DNA of 64,000 bases from the NCBI GenBank assembly GCA_041664285.1, contig JBAYLA010000003.1, positions 4,684 to 68,683 of the forward strand. The letters run 5' to 3'. The stretch comes from Minisyncoccota bacterium (GTDB lineage: Bacteria; Patescibacteriota; Minisyncoccia; Phycocordibacterales; UBA9973). The position numbers and the translations under genes were made by a program. Shown here piece after piece: positions 26,490-63,024 of the stretch. Each line of letters opens with the position of its first letter. Positions within the stretch are counted from its first letter, which is position 1. Under the pieces are notes generated by a model. It had not been told where the DNA came from, did not search any database, and worked only from the letters and a program-made list of their open reading frames with translations.

Positions 26490-28238
26490 ATGGAAACACA
26501 AATTAGAAATTGCCAGAACTGTAAAAAAGATTTCACGATAGAAGCGGAAGATTTTGATTTTTACAAGAAACTAAATGTTCCTGCTCCTACATGGTGTCCA
26601 GATTGTAGATTTATACGTAAGCTCACTTTTATAAATGAACGGTCTCTGTATAAGGGAGTTTGTGGTAATTGTAAAAAATCAATAATAACAATGTACCATC
26701 CGGATATCCCTTTTCCTTCCTGGTGTATTAAATGTCACTTAAGTGATATATGGGATGCACGTGATTATGGTAGAGAATATGATTTCTCTAGAAATTTTTT
26801 CGAACAGTTTAAAGAATTAAAATATAGTATTCCACACAGGGCACTTGATCAAAATGAAAGGAACGGAGAAGGCTGTGAGTATTCTAATCTATGCTATACC
26901 AGTAAAGATGTATATTTATCTTTTGATATTATTGCCTCAGAACATATCAAATACTCGGCACATGTTTTAAAATTTAATAAAAATTGTATGGACTCTATGA
27001 TTATAAAAGCCAATGATCGAGGGTATGAGTTGGTACAAGCGAGCCGAAATTATAATTCAACTTTTTTAGTTGAAAGCGATCAATGCATAGAATCACATTT
27101 TCTTTATGATTGTTCTAATTGTGTAAATTGTTGTTTGTCCTCGAATCTTCGAAACAAAAGCAATGTTTTCAGAAATCAGCAATTATCAAAAGAAGAATAC
27201 GAAAAAGCTGTTACTACTTTAAAACTTGAAACATATTCTGGTCAACTACGAGCTAAACAAGAATTTGCAACAATAGCTAAAAATGCTATTCATAAATATG
27301 CGCATATCAAAAATTCTGTAAATGCTATAGGAGATTTTATAGAAGATTCAAAAAATTTATACCATTGTTATGGTTTTGCAAAATCTGAAAATGTTAAATA
27401 TGGTTTTTGGGCGGCGAACATAATTAAAGATTCCCAAGATGTAATAATTCTAGGAAAAGTAGAGGAATGTTATGAATTTACTATGGGGGGCAGGGGCGGA
27501 AGTCGGCTAATTTTTTCTTTTAGCTGTGGTGGTACATGTAAAGATTTGTTTTATTGTGACAGTTGCAGGGGAAGCTCGAATTGCTTTGGCTGTATTAATT
27601 TAATTAAAAAACAGTATTGTATTTTTAATAAACAATATTCCAAAGAAGAATATTTTGAATTATTGCCTAAAATTATAAAACACATGAATGATATACCTTA
27701 CATAGATGCTTCTGGGAGAAAATATACTTTTGGTGAATTTTTTCCACCAGAAATTTCACCATTTGCTTATAATGAGACCATAGCATTTGAAGAACTTCCT
27801 CTTTCTAAAGATGAGATACTTTCTCAAGGTTACAAATGGAGAGACGAAGAATCAAAAACATATATTCCAACTTTAAAAACTGAAATGATTCCAGATAGCA
27901 TCAATGATGTAGTCGACATTATTTGCAATGAAATTATAGAATGTCCAAATAAAGGCAAAGTAGAAACACGATGCACATTAGCTTTTAGAATATTACCAGA
28001 TGAATTGTCTTTTTATCGGCAAATGAATTTACCTATTCCGAGATATTGTCCAAATTGTAGATATCATCAACGTTTAATTTGGAAAAATCCTTTCCATTTT
28101 TATAAACGACAATGCATGTGTGAATTATCAAATCATAATCATAATGAAAAATGCCAAATAGAATTTGAAACAATGTATTCACCAGATCGTCCTGAGATAA
28201 TTTATTGTAAGCAATGTTACCAGCAAGAAGTTTATTAA
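26490..28238 (+). CDS. cysteine-rich multi-zinc-ribbon protein, unknown family (paralog of 23790-25493)
   Basis: Same architecture and motifs (CQNC...CPDC; FYRQMNLPIPRYCPNCR; CKQCYQ at C-terminus). Confidence 0.7.
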   Translation: METQIRNCQNCKKDFTIEAEDFDFYKKLNVPAPTWCPDCRFIRKLTFINERSLYKGVCGNCKKSIITMYHPDIPFPSWCIKCHLSDIWDARDYGREYDFSRNFFEQFKELKYSIPHRALDQNERNGEGCEYSNLCYTSKDVYLSFDIIASEHIKYSAHVLKFNKNCMDSMIIKANDRGYELVQASRNYNSTFLVESDQCIESHFLYDCSNCVNCCLSSNLRNKSNVFRNQQLSKEEYEKAVTTLKLETYSGQLRAKQEFATIAKNAIHKYAHIKNSVNAIGDFIEDSKNLYHCYGFAKSENVKYGFWAANIIKDSQDVIILGKVEECYEFTMGGRGGSRLIFSFSCGGTCKDLFYCDSCRGSSNCFGCINLIKKQYCIFNKQYSKEEYFELLPKIIKHMNDIPYIDASGRKYTFGEFFPPEISPFAYNETIAFEELPLSKDEILSQGYKWRDEESKTYIPTLKTEMIPDSINDVVDIICNEIIECPNKGKVETRCTLAFRILPDELSFYRQMNLPIPRYCPNCRYHQRLIWKNPFHFYKRQCMCELSNHNHNEKCQIEFETMYSPDRPEIIYCKQCYQQEVY

Positions 28239-28296: not shown

Positions 28297-30845
28297 ATGG
28301 AGAAAGTTGAAAACATTCCAGGTCTTTCTCAAGTAGAGGCCGAAAAAATTTTAAAAATTGACGGTTTTAATGAATTACCCTCTCAGAAAAAACAGAGTGG
28401 TTTTTTTATTTTACTGAAAGTGTTGTCTGAGCCAATGCTTGTTTTGTTGCTTGGAGCTGGAGCAATCTATTTATTCTTAGGAGAAGCGAAAGATGCACTG
28501 ATGCTTCTGTCTTTTGTGTTCGTGGTTGTTGGTATCACATTTTATCAAGAAAGAAAAACAGAAAAAACACTTGAAGCCTTGCGTGATTTATCGAGTCCTA
28601 GAGCTTTGGTTATTAGAGATGGAGAGCAGAAAAGAATTGCAGGAAGGGAAGTTGTTAAAGGAGATATCATTATTGTTCATGAGGGGGATAGAATACCGGC
28701 TGATGCAGTTGTTCTTTCTTGTGAAAATCTTTCAGTGGATGAATCACTTTTAACAGGAGAATCAATGCCAGTTAGAAAAATGGAATGGGATGAAAAGATA
28801 ATAAAACAAAAACCAGGGGGGATGATTTACCTTTTGTTTATTCTGGGACAATGGTAGTAAATGGTCGAGGGATAGTGCAAGTAAATTTTACTGGTCTTAA
28901 TACTGAAATTGGTAAAATTGGCAGAAGTTTAGAAAATATCAAAGAAGAAGATACGCTTTTAAAGAAAGAAACAAAAAAAATTGTTCAATCAGTAGCTATT
29001 GTTGGGGTAATCCTTTGTTTACTTGTTGTTATATTTTACACGGTTGTTAAAGGTAGTTTAATTAATGGATTTTTGGCTGGAATAACATTAAGCATGGCAA
29101 TGCTCCCAGAGGAATTTCCAGTGGTACTTTTGATATTTTTAACTTTAGGTGCATGGAGAATTTCAAAAAGAAAAGTTCTTACTAGGCGACCTGCTGCTAT
29201 TGAGACATTAGGAGCAGCAACTGTTCTTTGTACAGACAAAACTGGAACACTTACATTAAATAAAATGGAATTAAGTAGTTTATACGCCAATGGTTCTTTT
29301 TGTGAAATTAAGGATCTAACTTTTAACAAACTTTTAGAAAAATTTGAAATTCTTTTGGAATTTGGAATTTTAGCTAGTAGAAAAGACCCATTTGATCCGA
29401 TTGAAAAAGAATTGAACAAAATTGGTAATTTATATCTTAAAAAAATAAAAGAAACTTATCATAATTACGATTTAGTAAGAGAGTATTCTTTGTCAAAAAA
29501 ACTTCTAGCCTTATCACATGTTTGGCAATCGAAAGATAAGAAAAATTTTATTCTTGCCTCTAAAGGAGCACCCGAAGCAATTTTAAAATTATGCAATTCA
29601 AGTGATGAGGAAAAGGAAAAAATTTTACAAAAAGTAAAAGAAATGTCTAAAAAGGGATTGCGGGTACTAGGGGTTGCTCGGGGAATATTTACGAGAGACG
29701 TTTTACCTGACCAACAACATGAATTTGATTTCGAATTTGTTGGTCTGCTTGGTTTTATTGATCCAGTACGAGCCACAGTTCCTAACGCTGTAAGAGAAGC
29801 TTATGATGCTGGAATAAAAGTAATTGTAATTACAGGAGATTACCCTGGTACGGCTCAATTTATAGCTAAAGAAATTGGAATAAAAAATATTGAAGAATAT
29901 TTAACAGGAGAAGATTTAGAAAAGATGGATCATTTAAAACTTCGAGAGAAAATAAAGACCATAAATATTTTTGCTAGAGTTGCACCAGAACAAAAATTAC
30001 TTATTGTAAACGCATTAAAAGCAAATGGTGAAATTGTTGCGATGACGGGTGATGGAGTAAATGATGCCCCAGCATTAAAGTCAGCTCATATTGGAGTTGC
30101 TATGGGAGAAAGAGGAACAGATGTGGCTCGAGAAGCTTCTTCCTTGGTTTTACTTAACGACGACTTTTCTTCAATTGTTGTCGCTGTTCGCTTGGGGCGA
30201 AGAATTTATAACAACTTAAAGAGGGCAATGGGATATATTTTAGCTGTACATGTTCCAATTGCCGGGATGTCTATTCTGCCTTTGTTTTTTAATATGCCGG
30301 TCGTATTGCTTCCAGCTCATATTGCTTTTTTAGAATTAATTATTGATCCTGCTTGCTCGACGGTTTTTGAAGCGGAAAAAGAAGATGAAAATATAATGAA
30401 AAGACCACCGAGGAACCTTCATCAGCGGATGTTTAATTTAAAAACAGTATCAATTAGTATGATGCAAGGGCTTGGTGTTTTGATAGCGACATTTGTTCTA
30501 TTTATTTTTGCCGTTAAGACGGGCAGGACTGAAATTGAAGCTCGATCAATTGCCTTTGTGGCATTAGTTTTGGGAAACTTAATGCTTATTGTTATTAACT
30601 TGTCATGGAGTAAAAATATTTTTAAAACCCTTAGATCTGCCAATAAAATATTCTATATGGTTTTCTTTGGAGCATTGTTGTGTTTAATGGCAGTATTATA
30701 TATACCGTTTTTTGCCAATCTTTTTCATTTAGGCCCACTAAATTATAAAGATTTTATTCTTGTAACTGCCGCTGTTTTATTAAGCTTAGCTTGGTTTGAA
30801 ATATTGAAATTATTTAAAAATAAAAATGAAATAAAATTTACTTGA
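28297..30845 (+). pseudogene. P-type cation-transporting ATPase (type II, Ca2+/Mg2+-like), interrupted by a frameshift in a G6 run at 28816-28821
   Basis: Two ORFs 28297-28857 and 28851-30845 in different frames; together give TGES, DKTGTLT, GDGVNDAPALK motifs and 8-10 TMs; inserting one G joins them (KPGGDDLPFVYSGTMVVNG). Confidence 0.75.
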
Positions 30846-37029: not shown

Positions 37030-37455
37030 ATGGCAAAGAAAATAACTAAAAAAATAAAACTACAAATTCAAGCTGCTAAAGCAACTCCAGCGCCTCCTTT
37101 AGGTCCAGCGCTTGGCCAGGCGGGTATTAACATTGGAGACTTTGTCACTAAATTTAATGCAGCGACACAAAAAATGGCTGGGGATAAAGTATCTGTAAAA
37201 ATCACTGTCTACGAAGATCGCAGTTATGATTTTATTGTTAAAACCCCTCCCGTAACAGGACTTATTTTAAAAGCAGCTGGAGTAGAAAAAGGTTCTGGTA
37301 AAAATGCTGCCACGAAAGCTGGGAAAATTACTCGTGCACAAGCCTTAGAGATAGCAAAGAAAAAAATGGCTGATTTGAATGCAAAAGACGATGAAGGCGC
37401 TATCAATATTATTGCTGGCTCTGCTCGCTCGATGGGGATTGAAGTGAAAGATTAG
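37030..37455 (+). CDS. rplK: 50S ribosomal protein L11
   Basis: [28 protein letters not shown]... Confidence 0.95.
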
Positions 37456-37471: not shown

Positions 37472-38143
37472 ATGCAAACACTTACAGAAAAGGATTATAA
37501 AAAGATTCTCATTTGTTTAACTCTTTACATTACCTCTCTTTTTGCTGCCAACACACTTGGTATTAAAACTATGCCTTTTCTTTTTAGCACTCATCTTTCG
37601 GTGGCTGTTTTTTCTTTTCCGATTGTTTTCATTATGACAGACGTTATTGGAGAAGTTTATGGAAAAAAAATGGCGAATAATTTTGTTTTTGCTGGAGTAA
37701 TCTCTATTTTACTTTTTTTGTTTTATTCTTTTATCTCTGATGTTGCACCATGGTCACAGAATAGTTCATGGGCCAAAGATTCTTTCAGCACTATTTTTGG
37801 AATTTCTGCTCGTTTTTCCATAGCATCTATTGTTGCTTTTATTATTGCAGAATATCAAGATGTTTTATCTTTCTTTTTTTTAAAGAAAAAAATTGGTGAA
37901 AAACAATTTTGGCTTCGTTCAAATCTTTCAAATGTTTGGTCACAGTTTTTTGATAGTGCTATTTTTATACTTATTGCTTTTGTAGGCACTGGGAGATACT
38001 CAGGAAAGGATATGTTGCTGATGATTATTGCTTGGTGGATTTACAAAGTCTTTATGGGATTTCTCTTTACTCCACTTTCATATTTGGGAATTCGTTTACT
38101 AAGGGGGAAACAAAGTAATGCAAGTTATATCAATCAAAACTAA
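37472..38143 (+). CDS. YhhQ/DUF165-family (queuosine-precursor transporter-like) membrane protein
   Basis: 6 TMs; ...MTDVIGEVYG... and RSNLSNVWSQFFDSAIFILIAFVG motifs typical of the family. Confidence 0.7.
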   Translation: MQTLTEKDYKKILICLTLYITSLFAANTLGIKTMPFLFSTHLSVAVFSFPIVFIMTDVIGEVYGKKMANNFVFAGVISILLFLFYSFISDVAPWSQNSSWAKDSFSTIFGISARFSIASIVAFIIAEYQDVLSFFFLKKKIGEKQFWLRSNLSNVWSQFFDSAIFILIAFVGTGRYSGKDMLLMIIAWWIYKVFMGFLFTPLSYLGIRLLRGKQSNASYINQN

Positions 38144-38828
38144 AATATTTCAGGAGAATGAAGATTTATTTGCATTTATTTTGAAATACGTTAAGAAAAT
38201 TCCTGATAATTCTGTTTTAGTTGTAACTTCTAAGATAGTAGCTTTGTCTGAGGGGAGAACTTCGGAGTATAAAAACAAAAAGCAAAAATCTGAATTAATT
38301 AAAAAAGAAAGTGAATTTTCTTTAAAAACTAAAATTGTTTGGTTAACCGTTAAAGATGGCATGGTGTTAGCAAATGCTGGCATTGATGAATCAAATGCAA
38401 AAAATAAAATAATTCTTTTACCAAAAAATAGTTTTGAGAGTGCAGAAATTTTGCGTAAAAAACTGATGAAAAAATTTCGTTTAAAGAATTTTGGTGTTTT
38501 AATAACAGACTCACGATTAATGCCGTTTCGTGTTGGAGCCGTAGGGATAGCCTTAGGTTATGCCGGTTTCAAGGGTGTTAAAAATTATATAGGGAAAAAA
38601 GATATTTTTGGTAGAGTTTTTAAAATATCAAAAACTAATATTGCTGATGGTTTAGCCACAACTGCAGTGCTCTGCATGGGAGAAGGAAAAGAACAACAAC
38701 CACTGGCCTTAATAACAGATGCACCAGTTGTTTTTACTAAAAAAATAAAAACAAACGAGCTTGTTGTTAATTTTGCAAAAGACATTTACGCTCCATTTTT
38801 TACCAATTTAAAAAATGAAAGAAAATAA
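38118..38828 (+). CDS. CofE-like gamma-glutamyl ligase family protein (F420-0:gamma-glutamyl ligase fold)
   Basis: VVTSKIVALSEGR and LANAGIDESNA motifs; overlaps upstream and downstream genes. Confidence 0.7.
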   Translation: MQVISIKTKIFQENEDLFAFILKYVKKIPDNSVLVVTSKIVALSEGRTSEYKNKKQKSELIKKESEFSLKTKIVWLTVKDGMVLANAGIDESNAKNKIILLPKNSFESAEILRKKLMKKFRLKNFGVLITDSRLMPFRVGAVGIALGYAGFKGVKNYIGKKDIFGRVFKISKTNIADGLATTAVLCMGEGKEQQPLALITDAPVVFTKKIKTNELVVNFAKDIYAPFFTNLKNERK

Positions 38829-39831
38829 ATTACCATACTTAACCAAACTTATTCAAAAGCTTGCACCTAAAATAGGCGCAAGAGTTGTTGTAGAACCAGA
38901 ATGGGGAATCGCATCACAAATTATTTTTAAAAACGGTGTAGTGAGATCAGCACGAATGTATTCTCTCGATCTTAACTATATTGCTTCATCTGACATTGCT
39001 CGAGATAAAGATTTTGCAAAGTTTTTTATGAAGAAAAAAGGCTATCCTGTAGCGGAGGGAAAAACAATCTTTGAAAATAATTGGGCTAAGATAGTAAAAA
39101 GTAAGCGTACTGTTTTTTATGCTTCCAAATATGCCAAACAACTTGGTTATCCAGTTATTGTAAAACCCAATAGTAAAAGTCAGGGATTGGGAGTATGTTT
39201 GGCTTGGAATAAAAAAGAATTACATCATGCCTTGCTCGAAGTATTTAAAGAAGATAAGGTTGCCATTGTTGAACAATATTTGCCGGGGCGTGATTATCGG
39301 GTAGTTGTTTTAGATGGGGAAATAATCTCTGCTTATGAAAGAATTCCACTTTCTATTGTTGGTGATGGGACAAATTCTATTTTTTATCTTCTAAAGAAAA
39401 AACAAATACTTTTTGACAAACAAAATCGTGATACAAAAATAAATTTTAATGATAAAAGAATAAAATTAAAATTACAAAGGCAGAAATATTCTTTTCGAAC
39501 TATTTTACCAAAAGGTATAAAAATTTTTTTACTTGATAATGCCAATTTGTCGACGGGTGGAGATGCTTTTGATGTAACGAAAAAAATTCACTTAAGTTTT
39601 AAAAAAATTGCTACTAAACTTACAAAAAATATGGGACTTCGGATGGCTGGAGTAGATATTATGGTTACCAAAGGGGATATTACAAAAGATTCTAAAAATT
39701 GCAGTTATTATATTATTGAAATCAACGCTGCTCCAGGCTTAGACCATTATGTAACAACTGGTCAAACTCAACGTAAAAATATTGAAGCGATGTATTTGAA
39801 AGTTTTAAAAGCGCTTGGCAAAAAAGATTAG
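38815..39831 (+). CDS. ATP-grasp ligase, RimK / CofF / MptN-like (alpha-L-glutamate ligase family)
   Basis: VIVKPNSKSQGLGV, DYRVVVLDGEII.AYER, NLSTGGDA, IIEINAAPGL. Confidence 0.7.
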   Translation: MKENKLPYLTKLIQKLAPKIGARVVVEPEWGIASQIIFKNGVVRSARMYSLDLNYIASSDIARDKDFAKFFMKKKGYPVAEGKTIFENNWAKIVKSKRTVFYASKYAKQLGYPVIVKPNSKSQGLGVCLAWNKKELHHALLEVFKEDKVAIVEQYLPGRDYRVVVLDGEIISAYERIPLSIVGDGTNSIFYLLKKKQILFDKQNRDTKINFNDKRIKLKLQRQKYSFRTILPKGIKIFLLDNANLSTGGDAFDVTKKIHLSFKKIATKLTKNMGLRMAGVDIMVTKGDITKDSKNCSYYIIEINAAPGLDHYVTTGQTQRKNIEAMYLKVLKALGKKD

Positions 39832-39849: not shown

Positions 39850-40356
39850 ATGAAAAAGACCGAGAAAAAACTTACTAAAAACAGAAGACCTTCTTGGGAT
39901 GAATACTTTTTGGATATGGTTGAAATGGTTGGTTCACGTGGTACTTGTGATCGTGGTCGTTCGGGCGCAGTTTTAGTGAAAGATAAAAGAATTTTAGCTA
40001 CTGGGTATGTTGGTTCACCTGTTGGAATTGCTCATTGTGATGATGTGGGTCATGAAATGCATTCTGTTACCAGAGAAGATGGAACAACATCTCGCCATTG
40101 TCTTCGAACAGCTCATGCAGAATTAAATGCGATTGCTAATGCTGCACGTTTTGGTGTTGCTATTGATGGGGCAACTTTATACTGCAAAATGACTCCTTGT
40201 TATACTTGCGCTAAAACGATTATCAATGCTGGGATAAAACGAGTTTTTGTTTTGAAAGATTATCATATAACCAAACAAACAAAAAACATTTTTAAAAAAG
40301 CAAAAGTAAAGTTAGAAATTTTTAATAAGGAAATTGAATCTTACGAAGACCAATAA
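39850..40356 (+). CDS. comEB: dCMP deaminase (ComEB-type cytidine/deoxycytidylate deaminase)
   Basis: HAELNAI...PCYTCAK zinc-binding motifs. Confidence 0.9.
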   Translation: MKKTEKKLTKNRRPSWDEYFLDMVEMVGSRGTCDRGRSGAVLVKDKRILATGYVGSPVGIAHCDDVGHEMHSVTREDGTTSRHCLRTAHAELNAIANAARFGVAIDGATLYCKMTPCYTCAKTIINAGIKRVFVLKDYHITKQTKNIFKKAKVKLEIFNKEIESYEDQ

Positions 40357-40359
40357 TTT

Positions 40360-40689
40360 ATGGTTGATCTAAAAGCATTACAAAAAGAAGTGATGAGGAA
40401 TAAGGTAGAAAAAGGATTTAACACGACAGATGTAGCGCGAGAATTTTGTCGAGCTTACGAAGAGCTTTCTGAGGCCTTTTCTAAACATGATAAAAATCAA
40501 CCCGGGGTGGCTGAAGAATTTGCTGATGTGGTGATTTTTATTCTTGGGATGTGTGAAAAGCTCGGTTTTGATTTAGAAAAAGAACTTGTTAGAAAAATTG
40601 AAATAAATAAAAATAGAAAATATGTTAAAACAAAATCCCCTGAAGGGAAAGATGTTTTTATTCGAGTAAAAACAGACGAGGATCCTTAG
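40360..40689 (+). CDS. MazG-like nucleotide pyrophosphohydrolase (all-alpha NTP-PPase)
   Basis: E..E...E.ADV motif pattern (EELSEAF...EEFADVVIF). Confidence 0.75.
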   Translation: MVDLKALQKEVMRNKVEKGFNTTDVAREFCRAYEELSEAFSKHDKNQPGVAEEFADVVIFILGMCEKLGFDLEKELVRKIEINKNRKYVKTKSPEGKDVFIRVKTDEDP

Positions 40690-41210
40690 ATTTTCTCGTA
40701 AACTGAGAAAGTGTAATCAAAAGCATTTTCTTTATCTTTTTTATGTTCTTCGTGAGATATTTCATTCCAAACAACAGGGATAATCTCTGGGAAAAATACT
40801 TCAGCGTCAGGAAATGATGCATTGACGTGTGTAATATAAAGTTTGTCTGCTTTGTCTATAAATAATTTATATATTTGTCCTCCACCAATAATAAAATTCT
40901 CTTCATTTTTGTTTGAAGTTTTTTCGAGTAGATCCATAAGCTCTGGAACAGAATGTACAATTTCTGCACCCTCTTTTTTAAATGTTTTATCTTGAGTTAA
41001 AATAATGTTTCTACGATTAGGGAGTAGTCGCCCTATTTGTTTACCGTTTTCATCTTTACCTAAAGATTCAAATGTTTTCTGACCCATTATCACGGTGCGT
41101 CCTTTTGTTGTTTCTCGAAAATGTTTCATATCAGCAGGCAAATTCCACAAAAGATCATTTTTCTTCCCGAGTTCATTATTTTTACCAATGGCTGCGATGA
41201 TAGATATCAT
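40686..41210 (-). CDS. folA: dihydrofolate reductase
   Basis: IIAAIGKNNELG...LLW...MGQKTFESLG...IIGGGQIY. Confidence 0.9.
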   Translation of the reverse strand: MISIIAAIGKNNELGKKNDLLWNLPADMKHFRETTKGRTVIMGQKTFESLGKDENGKQIGRLLPNRRNIILTQDKTFKKEGAEIVHSVPELMDLLEKTSNKNEENFIIGGGQIYKLFIDKADKLYITHVNASFPDAEVFFPEIIPVVWNEISHEEHKKDKENAFDYTFSVYEKI

Positions 41211-41213
41211 AAT

Positions 41214-42086
41214 TTATATTGCAATTTCAAAAGGAATTCTATGATAACTTTCATAATTAAGTACTTCTGTGTCAGGAGCTTTCCAATCAAAAATCGATTT
41301 CCAATTTTTTGTTTCTATTTTAGATAATGAATATTTACTGGGGTCTCGAGACAATTGTTCTCTTGCTCCATCTACATGGTTTTCAAAAAGATGGATGTCA
41401 GCTAAGAATCCAACAAGTTTTCCTTCTTTTAGTCCAGATTCTTTTGCGAGTAAGCTAAGAAGTAGGGCATAGCTAGCAATATTAAAAGGTAAACCCAACA
41501 TAATATCGACTGAACGTTGATTCCACATCAAATTAAGTTTTCCATTTATTGTGGTGACTTGAAAAGAGTAATGGCAAGGGGGAAGCCCCATTTCTTCTAA
41601 TTGTAGAGGATTCCATGCACTCACAATCATTCTGCGATCACGCGGGTTTGTTTTTAATATTTCTACTAGTCTTTTTAATTGATCTACTCCTTTTCCTGTG
41701 TAATCAGTATTATAACTTTCATATTTTGCATTAAAATGTCTCCATTGAAAACCATAGATAGGTCCAAGATCACGTTCTTCAAGCATCCTCTTTTTTGAAA
41801 TTTCATCATGACCGTATGGAGCCTTTTTGGGGCTTGCCCATTCATCCCAAATATGATTATTTCGATCTAAGAGCCATTGTTTATCAGTAACACCATTTAT
41901 AAAAAATTCTAATTCTGTTGAAATTAAACGGAAGGGCATTTTTTTGGTTGTTAACAATGGAAAACCTTTTGACATATCATGTTCAAAAATAGCTCCAGCG
42001 ATAGTATGCGCAGCTGTACCTTGGCGGGTGCTAATTTTTTCACCATTTTCCAAAACATTTTTTACAATATCTAAATAAGCCTTCAT
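41214..42086 (-). CDS. thyA: thymidylate synthase ThyA
   Basis: PPCHYSFQ active-site Cys motif, canonical ThyA length and motifs. Confidence 0.95.
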   Translation of the reverse strand: MKAYLDIVKNVLENGEKISTRQGTAAHTIAGAIFEHDMSKGFPLLTTKKMPFRLISTELEFFINGVTDKQWLLDRNNHIWDEWASPKKAPYGHDEISKKRMLEERDLGPIYGFQWRHFNAKYESYNTDYTGKGVDQLKRLVEILKTNPRDRRMIVSAWNPLQLEEMGLPPCHYSFQVTTINGKLNLMWNQRSVDIMLGLPFNIASYALLLSLLAKESGLKEGKLVGFLADIHLFENHVDGAREQLSRDPSKYSLSKIETKNWKSIFDWKAPDTEVLNYESYHRIPFEIAI

Positions 42087-43582: not shown

Positions 43583-44908
43583 ATGAAGAAAAGCAATATA
43601 AAATCACCACTAGATATTGCATATAATCGCCTCGACGAAGCTCATAGAGCTTGGCATCTTGCTCTGAATGGTTATCATAAAATTGATGATTTTAGAGCTG
43701 GGATTAATTCCGCTATTCAATCTTTAAGGAATCTAACTTTTGCCCTACAAAGCGAAAAAAGTAATTTTTCTAACTTTGATAGTTGGTATGAATCTTGGCG
43801 AATAAAAATGAGGGATGATCTTGTATTAAAAGAATTAAATGGTGCCAGGAATATTATTGTAAAACAAGAAGATCTAAAACTAAAAAGCAAAGCTACAGCT
43901 CAGGTAAAAGGCTGGGAGAATTACAAATCTTTATGTTTTGAATTTGATCCTATGTCTGACAGCTATGCTGTGGCTAAAGGATTTTATAATAACTATGTTG
44001 TGTATTTACCAGTATCAAAAGAAAATAAAAGTAGATTTATTTTTAATTTTGAAAGAAAATGGATTTACGAAAAGTTACCTGACGTTGAATTACTTGAAGC
44101 GGTAGCCTATAGTTATCATTTTTTTTGGGAAATGCTTAAAGATGCAGAAAAAGTATTTTCTTTACCCCAAAAAAATTCTTTAAGTAGTGGAGATTTTTGC
44201 CAAAGTGAAATAATCGATAATAAGTTCTTAAGGTGCATGGCAATTACTCGTCAAGAAAGGTCATTGATTTTTAGCTTAGAAAATGGTGGAGTCGTTTACA
44301 GTGGAAAAACATCTTCGTGGATTCCAACAGAAGATATAAAACAAAAAACAAAAAAAAGATATGGTGATATGTGGAAATCAAAGGAAATTATATCTATGTT
44401 GAACGGTATCTTTGTAAATAAATATCCATTTGACCAAGTAAAAAAGCTTATTCAAATAGCAATAGCAAGTATTAAAAGAGATAAATACCTTGTTCCAATG
44501 TCGTTTATTTTTACCGAAAAGCACAAGCCTCCTATGATCATTTCTCACACTTTCCAAAATCAACAAAGTAAAATTATAGCAATAAATAAAGTTGCGGATG
44601 AAATTATTAAGATTAAGGGGACCTCAATACTTCAGCTAGGAGAAGCATGGCTAGCACCGCTTAAAAAAGATGGTCATAATTTTCCATTACAAGATAGAAA
44701 AGATACAAAAGATGTTGTGCTTATACATTGGGTTTCTAGTGAAATGGGTAAAGTTATTACTATTCCTTTTAAGAAAAATATTTTTAATCAAATTATTTTT
44801 TCAAAAATAGAAGTTGAAGATTTTGATACAAATCAACCTCATAAAAATTTTCTACTTTTGCCGTTAATAGAAGCTTTACAAAAGGTTAAAAATAAAAATC
44901 CCCGATAA
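43583..44908 (+). CDS. hypothetical protein, 441 aa, no recognisable domain
   Basis: long uninterrupted ORF with SD-like spacing; orphan. Confidence 0.55.
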   Translation: MKKSNIKSPLDIAYNRLDEAHRAWHLALNGYHKIDDFRAGINSAIQSLRNLTFALQSEKSNFSNFDSWYESWRIKMRDDLVLKELNGARNIIVKQEDLKLKSKATAQVKGWENYKSLCFEFDPMSDSYAVAKGFYNNYVVYLPVSKENKSRFIFNFERKWIYEKLPDVELLEAVAYSYHFFWEMLKDAEKVFSLPQKNSLSSGDFCQSEIIDNKFLRCMAITRQERSLIFSLENGGVVYSGKTSSWIPTEDIKQKTKKRYGDMWKSKEIISMLNGIFVNKYPFDQVKKLIQIAIASIKRDKYLVPMSFIFTEKHKPPMIISHTFQNQQSKIIAINKVADEIIKIKGTSILQLGEAWLAPLKKDGHNFPLQDRKDTKDVVLIHWVSSEMGKVITIPFKKNIFNQIIFSKIEVEDFDTNQPHKNFLLLPLIEALQKVKNKNPR

Positions 44909-61772: not shown

Positions 61773-62372
61773 CTAACGCAACTTCTTGTACTCCTCAATC
61801 TCTTTTAGAATATCCTTTGCAACTTTTGGGATAGGCTGATTGCCGTTGATTATTTTTATTTTATTTAAACTCTTAAAATATTTTACAGTTTTACTGACTT
61901 GTTTTTTGTGATAATTAATTCTTTTAGCGATAATTTTTTTTGTATCAAGCACTCTATAAATAGCTTTCATTTTTCCCTTACTTCGTTTTAATGAACGTCT
62001 ATAAACTTCCTTATCGGGTAGGTTAATATAAAAAGCTAAAAAGTCTTCCTTGCGTGAATCCAGCATTTTTTTTAAGAGTTGGGCTTCTGGTTTTAGTCTT
62101 CCCCCTAGAAAAAGTAAGTTCTTGTTTTTAGGTTTATTGTTTATTTCTTTAATTAAAAATTTTTTTATCAAAACAACCGGCAATGGTAGACCTTTTCCTG
62201 TTGTTCTTCTAGCTAAATCACCATTTTTGCTTTTTTCTTTTAAAAGATTACGAGAATACACCCCTGTTTCTACAAATTTTAAAGCATATTTCTTTTTTAG
62301 AATATTAGCTTGGGTTTCTTTGCCGGAGGCTATCATTCCTAGAAGTACTATGTTAAATCCAAGCTTTTTCAT
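61773..62372 (-). CDS. divergent adenylate-kinase-like NMP-kinase family protein (paralog, opposite strand to adk)
   Basis: P-loop LLGMIASGKETQ (cf. GxPGxGKGTQ), GGRLKP in place of GFPRT; rest highly Lys-rich. Confidence 0.5.
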   Translation of the reverse strand: MKKLGFNIVLLGMIASGKETQANILKKKYALKFVETGVYSRNLLKEKSKNGDLARRTTGKGLPLPVVLIKKFLIKEINNKPKNKNLLFLGGRLKPEAQLLKKMLDSRKEDFLAFYINLPDKEVYRRSLKRSKGKMKAIYRVLDTKKIIAKRINYHKKQVSKTVKYFKSLNKIKIINGNQPIPKVAKDILKEIEEYKKLR

Positions 62373-62433: not shown

Positions 62434-63024
62434 ATGCAAACGCAAACTTTCGTATTTTTTGGAATCATTGGCTCCGGCAAGGGAACTCAGGTTGATTTGT
62501 TGCGAAAATATCTAAAAGACAAGAACATAGCTTCTGATATTTTATATACATCTACAGGTGATGAATTCAGAAAGGTTATTGGGAGTGGTAGTTATACTGG
62601 ACAAATAATAAAAGAAACTCTTGAAAAAGGATTTTTACAGCCTAACTTTATTACCACCAGTTTATTTACCAACATACTGATTTCCGGAATGAAAAATGAC
62701 ACCTGCCTGATCGCTGATGGATATCCACGAACTATTGCGCAGTCAGAAAGTTTTGAAGCAATGATGAAGTTTTATAAAAGAGAAAATATAAAAATTATTT
62801 ACATTGAATTATCCGAGCAAGAAGCGATGAAAAGAAATTTACTACGAGGCAGAACTGATGATACAGAAGAAGGAATTAAGAAAAGATTTGATGAATACAT
62901 AAATAACGTAGTTCCTTCCTTAAATTATTTCAAAGGAAAAGAGAATTATACAATTTTCACGATCAATGGAGAGCAAACGGTAGAAAATGTGCACCAAGAT
63001 ATCATTAAGGCCTTGAATTTTTAA
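62434..63024 (+). CDS. adk: adenylate kinase (short-LID type)
   Basis: GIIGSGKGTQ, STGDEFRK, DGYPRT, RxxD..E. Confidence 0.9.
   Translation: MQTQTFVFFGIIGSGKGTQVDLLRKYLKDKNIASDILYTSTGDEFRKVIGSGSYTGQIIKETLEKGFLQPNFITTSLFTNILISGMKNDTCLIADGYPRTIAQSESFEAMMKFYKRENIKIIYIELSEQEAMKRNLLRGRTDDTEEGIKKRFDEYINNVVPSLNYFKGKENYTIFTINGEQTVENVHQDIIKALNF

Follow-up and report, generated by a model that had tools for sequence, protein, structure and literature searches.

A candidate folate uptake-and-tailing cassette within a thymidylate gene cluster of Paceibacteria

The 64,000-nucleotide (nt) stretch of contig JBAYLA010000003.1 analyzed here as a whole (hereafter, the window) carries three genes that are read in the same direction and overlap at their stops and starts. 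They encode a membrane protein of the Vut_1/YhhQ family, a ligase with the fold of CofE, the F420-0:gamma-glutamyl ligase, and an ATP-grasp ligase. What would an ultra-small bacterium do with a transporter that is coupled to two such ligases? The host belongs to Candidatus Paceibacterota, within the Candidate Phyla Radiation (CPR), and its contig has a low G+C content (approximately 0.29-0.40). CPR bacteria, or Patescibacteria, are abundant, mostly uncultured and nutritionally dependent on their neighbours. Homology and gene context lead us to propose that the three genes probably form a folate uptake-and-tailing cassette within a cluster of thymidylate and one-carbon genes. A sequence-only reading of the window had suggested that a scavenged cofactor is imported and (poly)glutamylated. 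This stands as the best reading, with the cofactor sharpened to folate, most likely, and not F420 or methanopterin. The alternative offered at the same time, the glutamylation of a protein or peptide, gained no positive evidence.

The three open reading frames (ORFs) lie on the plus strand as first described (Table 1), and they are one translationally coupled unit. The Vut_1 gene overlaps the CofE-like gene by 26 nt and the CofE-like gene overlaps the ATP-grasp gene by 14 nt, and such overlaps recur in other species. A Shine-Dalgarno-like AGGGGGA supports position 38118 as the true start of the CofE-like gene, as well as the translational coupling. The cassette is inserted after rplK of a secE-nusG-rplK unit, with 16 nt between the rplK stop and the Vut_1 ATG and no terminator-like site in this gap.

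The substrate of the CofE-like ligase

That the second gene encodes a protein with the F420 ligase fold is borne out (PF01996, E-value 8.5e-41, with both motifs SKIVALSEGR and NAGIDESN present), but its identity as CofE is not. The best NCBIfam model is TIGR04132, 'putative folate metabolism gamma-glutamate ligase', which with 206 bits outscores the CofE models (143-146 bits) by approximately 60 bits. Three CofE/FbiB models gave 109-146 bits, all below their curated cutoffs, and neither CofE equivalog was reached (143.5 bits versus 180.65 for TIGR01916, 146 versus 274 for NF009809). The same preference is detectable in eight further Paceibacteria homologues from several lineages, which score 186-235 bits with TIGR04132 and 117-142 bits with the CofE models.

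The alignment with CofE of Archaeoglobus (Af-CofE; E-value 6e-25) separates catalysis from recognition of the cofactor. The catalytic residues of the metal/nucleotide site, D109, D150, T151 and E208, correspond to D90, D131, S132 and E189 in the window protein. Af-CofE binds the deazaflavin through F92, G153-C155 and R234 (PMC10861534). These contacts with the isoalloxazine chromophore are not kept, as F92 is replaced by I73 and G153-R154-C155 by L134-M135-P136, a replacement read from the alignment only and located beside an indel; R234 falls outside the aligned region.

The CofE-like gene clusters physically with folate genes, the genes for dihydrofolate reductase (DHFR) and thymidylate synthase (ThyA) being adjacent in the window. 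CT611 (FolC2), a CofE homologue encoded in the chlamydial folate cluster, complements a folC mutant of Escherichia coli (PMC1971073). Overall, we are fairly confident that the CofE-like enzyme acts on folate. One JGI record already names a homologue 'dihydrofolate synthase / folylpolyglutamate synthase' (P0107). In search of FolC, we also looked for the Mur-ligase P-loop, which neither the window nor any of 88 loci contains; this is a local negative only.

It is highly improbable that the two ligases glutamylate a scavenged F420 or methanopterin-type cofactor. The PF01996 fold with its conserved catalytic residues would agree with such a role, as would the name 'coenzyme F420-0:L-glutamate ligase' that PGAP gives to the protein and the pairing of a gamma-ligase with an ATP-grasp enzyme, which recalls CofE and CofF. 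Besides the missed equivalog cutoffs and the lost chromophore contacts, however, the ATP-grasp partner scores 36.2 bits with the CofF model (cutoff 300) and 40.1 bits with the MptN model (cutoff 350). Neither the window nor approximately 90 related loci, where folate genes are the constant neighbours, contain any cof or mpt gene. In particular, cofC, cofD, cofG and cofH are missing from the annotated parts of the window and from these loci, which extend up to 21 kb. The same annotated parts contain no F420 or methanopterin genes, in agreement with the sequence-only reading, and no queuosine genes. We rejected the F420 or methanopterin reading on the grounds of hidden Markov model (HMM) cutoffs, chromophore contacts and folate-only contexts. 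A reassignment of this ligase had been expected to make the locus routine; this is true for that gene only, and not for its transporter and ATP-grasp partners, which are still undescribed.

An ATP-grasp ligase of the CphA/GshF clade

The third protein had been taken for a RimK-type ligase, as in CofF and MptN. We abandoned this assignment, because sequence and predicted fold both place the protein in the clade of the CphA G domain and GshF. Its best NCBIfam matches are CphA (182 bits, model positions 207-463 of 862) and the C-terminal domain of GshF (158 bits). The RimK family model TIGR00768 reaches 58.7 bits versus a cutoff of 143.4, and the RimK model NF007764 30 bits versus 331. A phmmer search of the Protein Data Bank (PDB) returned CphA1 first (7txv, E-value 1e-31), followed by CphA and GshAB relatives at 1e-31 to 1e-26, with RimK at 4e-4. 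An AlphaFold2 model of moderate quality (predicted local distance difference test score 70.8) gave a similar ranking in Foldseek, with CphA2 (7ta5, 2e-21), CphA1 (1e-20) and GshAB (3ln6, 1e-20) at the top, a CphA/GshAB range of 2e-21 to 1e-15, and Ddl and RimK at approximately 1e-10. A ligase of the RimK, CofF or MptN type was thus discarded on HMM scores, PDB search and Foldseek alike.

Neither is the protein a true cyanophycin synthetase or GshF. It is 338 amino acids long compared to approximately 870 for full CphA1, its 182 bits lie well under the CphA cutoff of 850, and the N and M domains of CphA are missing together with the glutamate-cysteine ligase domain of GshF. Since these domains are missing and the gene lies among folate and thymidylate genes, the PGAP name 'cyanophycin synthetase' is an over-annotation. 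None of the papers listed in a literature search links CPR to cyanophycin synthetase.

A profile search covering 1.8 billion representatives matched 702 clusters (50% identity, E-value <= 1e-30), mostly of stand-alone proteins with 320-360 amino acids. Among 10 long representatives that we scanned, most carry two or more ATP-grasp domains, in some cases together with an acylphosphatase or lysyltransferase domain, while one is simply longer at the N terminus; none of the 10 is fused to a folate enzyme. We also considered a role in anti-phage defence and rejected it, as neither the ATP-grasp ligase nor the MazG-like or the neighbouring Ea47-like protein gave a PADLOC match. One relative, 56% identical to the window protein, is encoded on a contig with G+C content 0.61 that was binned as 'Candidatus Sumerlaeia' (JBDKRG010000018.1) and has no recognised folate neighbours; it could be due to mis-binning or to horizontal transfer.

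Gene contexts and transporters across Paceibacteria

We scanned one genome per GTDB species and found that 365 genomes encode a relative of the ATP-grasp ligase. The best 80 belong to Paceibacteria-type Patescibacteria; Nomura-, Kaiser-, Lipton-, Colwell-, Vogel- and Taylorbacteria are among their labels, and one is labelled Sumerlaeia. Gene families were mapped onto the loci with locally built HMMs, the first ATG was used as the start in related loci, and a single-gene neighbour-joining tree was built for the ATP-grasp ligase. In the approximately 90 related loci, the gene contexts consist of folate and thymidylate genes, and the triad recurs across species loci of Paceibacteria. Contigs with close homologues keep the order secE-nusG-rplK, triad, dCMP deaminase, MazG-like gene, folA and thyA. 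The dCMP deaminase lies downstream of the ATP-grasp gene in most syntenic loci, with a conserved MazG-like gene beside it. In some relatives thyX takes the place of folA-thyA and the triad stays.

The slot between rplK and the ATP-grasp gene is variable among the 49 rplK-syntenic species loci. It is empty in 18 of them, and contains Vut_1 and the CofE-like gene in 16, or the same two genes with a DHFR-family gene in between in eight. An unrelated multi-pass membrane protein precedes the CofE-like gene in four further loci, directly in two and followed by a DHFR-family gene in the other two. The three remaining loci contain FolP, a CADD/CT610-like protein and the CofE-like gene, Vut_1 alone, and one unassigned ORF, respectively. 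Whenever a CofE-like gene is in the slot of these 49 loci, it is preceded by a putative substrate-supply gene; conversely, Vut_1 is accompanied by a CofE-like gene in all species loci but one. The overlaps are conserved as well, between the CofE-like and ATP-grasp genes in 28 of 30 loci, between Vut_1 and the next gene in 23 of 26, and between the reductase and the CofE-like gene, by 11 nt, in all 11. The conserved overlap of the CofE-like and ATP-grasp genes suggests that their two products may form a complex. The states of the slot are interspersed on the ATP-grasp tree, which suggests that the cassette has been repeatedly gained and lost as a unit.

Folate and thymidylate neighbours are detectable also beyond this synteny. 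DHFR, ThyA, CofE-like, FolD or GlyA genes lie within three genes of the ATP-grasp gene in 17 of the 29 loci without rplK synteny, compared to an estimated few per cent expected by chance (approximately 800 genes, approximately six such genes; the loci are related and do not represent independent trials). Their arrangements include Dcd, GlyA, FolD and ATP-grasp followed by the CofE-like gene on the opposite strand; ATP-grasp, DHFR, ThyA, Dcd, Tmk and GlyA; ATP-grasp, CofE-like and DHFR; and ATP-grasp, 5-formyltetrahydrofolate cyclo-ligase and CofE-like. ThyX is also found among the neighbours of the ATP-grasp gene across Paceibacteria. In addition, we observed a ferredoxin-NADP-reductase-like oxidoreductase (FAD_binding_6 / NAD_binding_1) beside the ATP-grasp and CofE-like genes in two distant lineages (L074:9122-9832 and L068:12429-13127), in one of which a NUDIX hydrolase adjoins the oxidoreductase (L068:11789-12289).

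These contexts bear on whether the ATP-grasp ligase is related to folate at all. It might instead make a small glutathione- or cyanophycin-like peptide, or modify a protein as RimK does with S6, since its nearest characterised relatives form peptide bonds in cyanophycin and glutathione, and in 18 species the gene directly follows rplK, with neither transporter nor CofE-like gene. We judge this improbable. The protein lacks the additional domains of CphA and GshF, and there is no Mur-ligase P-loop in the window or the loci. Moreover, the adjacency to rplK is limited to one synteny group, outside of which folate genes or the CofE-like gene adjoin in at least five arrangements, and the overlap with the stop codon of the CofE-like gene is kept in nearly all species that have both. 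We are moderately confident that the ATP-grasp ligase is folate-related, and our confidence in its exact reaction is low.

The other members of the cassette can be exchanged or supplemented. In many relatives, Vut_1 and the CofE-like gene are separated by a gene for a RibD_C-type reductase of the DHFR family. The fact that this reductase occurs in genomes that also have a canonical folA beside thyA suggests a dedicated reduction of the imported compound. One Nomurabacteria genome (L034) replaces the transporter with FolP and a protein of the CADD/CT610 family (PqqC-like), upstream of the CofE-like and ATP-grasp genes. With these genes, a CPR bacterium carries a de novo dihydropteroate branch in the style of Chlamydia.

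In four loci (L013, L016, L039 and L044), Vut_1 is replaced by an unrelated multi-pass membrane protein of 227-242 amino acids, named 'ECF transporter S component' in UniRef (ECF, energy-coupling factor). It has no match in Pfam, NCBIfam or the PDB, and no homology to Vut_1 was detected by hhalign or by Pfam, NCBIfam or PDB profiles. The database holds 1,836 relatives; among the matches listed, all named ones are Patescibacterial and, save for two identical entries, they are 71-87% identical to the L013 protein. Contigs labelled as Yonathbacteria or Taylorbacteria, with unrelated flanks, carry the ATP-grasp ligase, this alternative membrane protein, the RibD_C-type reductase and the CofE-like ligase in this order, with the last three genes joined by overlaps of 38 and 4 nt.

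Several observations weigh against a folate cassette. Shared ancestry of the loci means that the counts reported above do not represent independent events. The ATP-grasp gene is as closely linked to thymidylate genes (dCMP/dCTP deaminase, MazG-like, Tmk) as to folate genes, and it is present at the site in the 18 syntenic species that have neither Vut_1 nor a CofE-like gene. Its substrate therefore need not be the product of the CofE-like enzyme. As the most persistent member, found alone in approximately one third of the syntenic species, it may have a role of its own, and it could be the dihydrofolate synthase/folylpolyglutamate synthase (DHFS/FPGS) of the ATP-grasp-only genomes. The CofE-like protein falls short of the TIGR04132 trusted cutoff of 350 bits, as do its homologues, which thus represent a separate subfamily. 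An Rfam scan of the window and eight related loci, which also covered the 205-nt spacer that precedes the alternative transporter gene in L091, returned tRNAs only and no tetrahydrofolate (THF) or preQ1 riboswitch. Finally, Vut_1 exceeds the curated threshold of a model called 'queuosine precursor transporter' (TIGR00697, 117 bits versus 50.95), and all characterised members of the YhhQ family carry the 7-deazaguanines preQ0, preQ1 or queuine (PMC5372724, PMC11130926).

These last data confirm the sequence-based placement of the transporter in the YhhQ-like family (PF02592, E-value 2.8e-39). They would also fit a system in which only the two ligases act on folate and Vut_1 is an ordinary importer of queuosine precursors that shares their operon, the more so as unrelated genes are often packed into one operon in small genomes. 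We consider this explanation unlikely. The E. coli-type equivalog NF008406 gives only 48 bits versus a cutoff of 252, and no tgt or que gene is found in the annotated parts of the window or in the scanned loci. Vut_1 is gained and lost jointly with the CofE-like gene and generally overlaps the next gene of the cassette. Elsewhere its position is taken by an unrelated S-component-like protein or by FolP and CADD, and the alternative membrane protein accompanies the reductase, the CofE-like and the ATP-grasp genes in distant lineages. We give folate or pteroate an even chance of being the cargo of Vut_1; no report connecting COG1738/YhhQ with either cargo was found in the searched literature.

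Table 1. Positions of the cassette, its neighbours and the related elements discussed in the text (window coordinates, unless a related locus is indicated)
Feature	Position	Strand	Basis
rplK (ribosomal protein L11), directly 5' of the cassette	37030..37455	+	Pfam Ribosomal_L11
Vut_1/YhhQ-family membrane protein (QPTR, COG1738; multi-pass), 223 amino acids	37472..38143	+	PF02592, TIGR00697
AGGGGGA, Shine-Dalgarno-like, within the 3' end of the Vut_1 gene, 10 nt 5' of the CofE-like ATG	38102..38108	+	Sequence inspection
CofE-fold gamma-glutamate ligase nearest the FolC2 (Chlamydia CT611) type, 236 amino acids	38118..38828	+	PF01996, TIGR04132
Stand-alone ATP-grasp ligase, homologue of the CphA G domain and the GshF C-terminal domain, 338 amino acids	38815..39831	+	NCBIfam, several ATP-grasp Pfam matches
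dCMP deaminase (supplies dUMP), next same-strand gene 3' of the cassette	39850..40356	+	PF00383 E 6e-23; ComEB-type TIGR02571 130 bits
Small MazG-like nucleotide pyrophosphohydrolase	40360..40689	+	PF12643 E 1.8e-6
Canonical dihydrofolate reductase FolA, convergent to the cassette	40686..41210	-	PF00186 E 2e-53
Thymidylate synthase ThyA, main folate consumer of the cluster	41214..42086	-	PF00303 E 4e-88
RibD_C-type DHFR-family reductase of related cassettes	L004:9478-10011 (equivalents in L006, L009, L011, L020, L022, L026, L032, L036, L047); L091:6692-7243		PF01872 E 9e-16; PF00186 E 1.6e-8
FolP and CADD/CT610-family protein	L034:7728-9978		FolP PF00809 E 1e-80; CADD-like TIGR04305 194 bits versus cutoff 200
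Alternative membrane protein	L013:8592-9299; L016:8636-9319; L044:8108-8812
Alternative membrane protein	L089/L091/L092:6001-6729; L093:183-911; L094:1563-2291

Other features of the window were recorded as well. A 441-amino-acid protein with a Phage_lambda_Ea47 Pfam match (43583-44908, plus strand) is encoded between a DEAD-box helicase gene and rpmB; relatives have different genes or none at this position, which therefore looks like a variable insertion site. Two overlapping ORFs on the plus strand (28297-28857, 186 amino acids, and 28851-30845, 664 amino acids) together encode a P-type cation ATPase, for which the related locus L006 has a single gene of 866 amino acids. This split could be a frameshift, a pseudogene or genuine. 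Two adjacent, divergent genes of the adenylate kinase family follow secY (61773-62372 on the minus strand and 62434-63024 on the plus strand), the second of which weakly matches thymidylate kinase. Finally, an ORF of 582 amino acids (26490-28238, plus strand) has no Pfam match at E <= 1e-4.

A proposed folate route and its relation to known systems

How could the cassette work? Vut_1 would take in a vitamin of the pterin type (folate or a precursor resembling pteroate), which would be reduced by the adjacent canonical FolA in the window and by the RibD_C-type DHFR-family reductase in many relatives. The CofE-fold ligase would then add a gamma-linked glutamate, as CT611/FolC2 does by genetic evidence, so that the cofactor would be both trapped and activated. 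The ATP-grasp ligase would convert a tail carboxylate into an acyl phosphate and join another amino acid to it. This linkage would most plausibly be alpha, because the nearest characterised relatives of the enzyme, the G domain of CphA1 and the C-terminal domain of GshF, both extend alpha-carboxylates and because CofE followed by CofF provides a precedent in methanogens. The product would serve ThyA and DHFR here, and GlyA and FolD in relatives, with deoxyuridine monophosphate (dUMP) supplied by the dCMP deaminase and the MazG-like protein.

We read the evidence as pointing to a four-part module in which an S-component-like transporter and, optionally, a reductase are joined by a FolC2-like ligase and an ATP-grasp ligase, and which would serve the thymidylate and one-carbon enzymes of the surrounding genes. 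Going further, we tentatively entertain the possibility that Paceibacteria possess an unrecognised folate kit, in which an S-component-like importer, from either the Vut_1 family or an unannotated membrane-protein family, acts together with a FolC2-type ligase and a CphA-G/GshF-type ATP-grasp ligase. The latter would represent a third, non-homologous class of folate-tail ligase, and would work either as an alpha-capping enzyme or, where a genome has this gene only, as its DHFS/FPGS.

A study from 2025 reports that CPR bacteria widely encode folA, glyA and folD, and that no homologue of a folate transporter was found in the CPR genomes examined (PMC11974145); folC does not occur in its text, and its supplement has no folC or cofE entries. 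Only one paper in the searched literature mentions both folylpolyglutamate and Patescibacteria, and it concerns an anammox consortium. FolC2 itself is already known. Undescribed in the searched literature are the spread of the present module across Paceibacteria and the coupling of a FolC2-type ligase, on the one hand to a transporter of the YhhQ family or another S-component-like type, and on the other to a stand-alone ATP-grasp ligase of the CphA-G/GshF type.

The cassette offers candidates for the entry of a vitamin, its retention by glutamylation and the finishing of its tail. If the tentative reading of an unrecognised folate kit is true, it fills two gaps in these organisms, that of the folate transporter and that of the folate-glutamate ligase, and widens the substrate range of YhhQ from 7-deazaguanines to pterins. 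The cassette also provides a testable substrate hypothesis for an ATP-grasp family that comprises more than 700 sequence clusters, most of its members being stand-alone proteins. Two systematic errors in the public annotation of Patescibacteria metagenome-assembled genomes can be flagged, 'coenzyme F420-0:L-glutamate ligase' and 'cyanophycin synthetase', both of which are mis-annotations because the cutoffs or domain requirements of the families themselves are failed. Alpha-linked folylpolyglutamates have been described in E. coli, and we know of no gene that has been assigned to the enzyme making this linkage. An ATP-grasp ligase that adds alpha-linked residues to the folate tail, if real, would bear on these compounds.

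Among known systems, the closest parallel for the pair of ligases is that of CofE and CofF (MptN) in methanogens. There, too, a CofE-fold ligase is paired with an ATP-grasp amino-acid ligase on the tail of a cofactor, the gamma-glutamyl ligase acting first and the alpha-L-glutamate ATP-grasp ligase second, on F420 or tetrahydromethanopterin. The cassette differs from this pair in its head group, which is probably folate, and in its ATP-grasp ligase, which belongs to the CphA G-domain/GshF clade and not to RimK.

The first ligase resembles FolC2/CT611 (COG1478, TIGR04132) in its CofE fold, its best-scoring model and its clustering with folate genes. The resemblance to Chlamydia extends to the neighbourhood of the Nomurabacteria relative, where FolP, the CADD/CT610-like protein and the CofE-like ligase come together. 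Unlike CT611, however, the ligase of the cassette is found in a salvage context with a transporter, not in a de novo pathway, and is translationally coupled to an ATP-grasp ligase. To our knowledge, no ATP-grasp ligase lies next to CT611.

The transporter is a member of the QPTR/YhhQ family (COG1738; TCDB 2.A.88, VUT family) according to the HMMs. QPTR/YhhQ is a small multi-pass membrane protein that functions without ECF energising modules (PMC5372724). In contrast to that family, Vut_1 of the cassette is not tied to nearby queuosine genes or preQ1 riboswitches; it is co-inherited with folate-tail ligases and can be swapped for another S-component-like protein.

The nearest relatives of the ATP-grasp ligase in sequence and predicted fold are the CphA1 G domain, CphA2 and GshF (GshAB), which join an amino acid to the alpha-carboxylate of a peptide through an acyl phosphate. 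Unlike CphA1 and GshF, the ligase of the cassette has no N domain, Mur-ligase-like M domain or glutamate-cysteine ligase domain, and its genomic context is that of folate and thymidylate, not of nitrogen storage or thiol metabolism.

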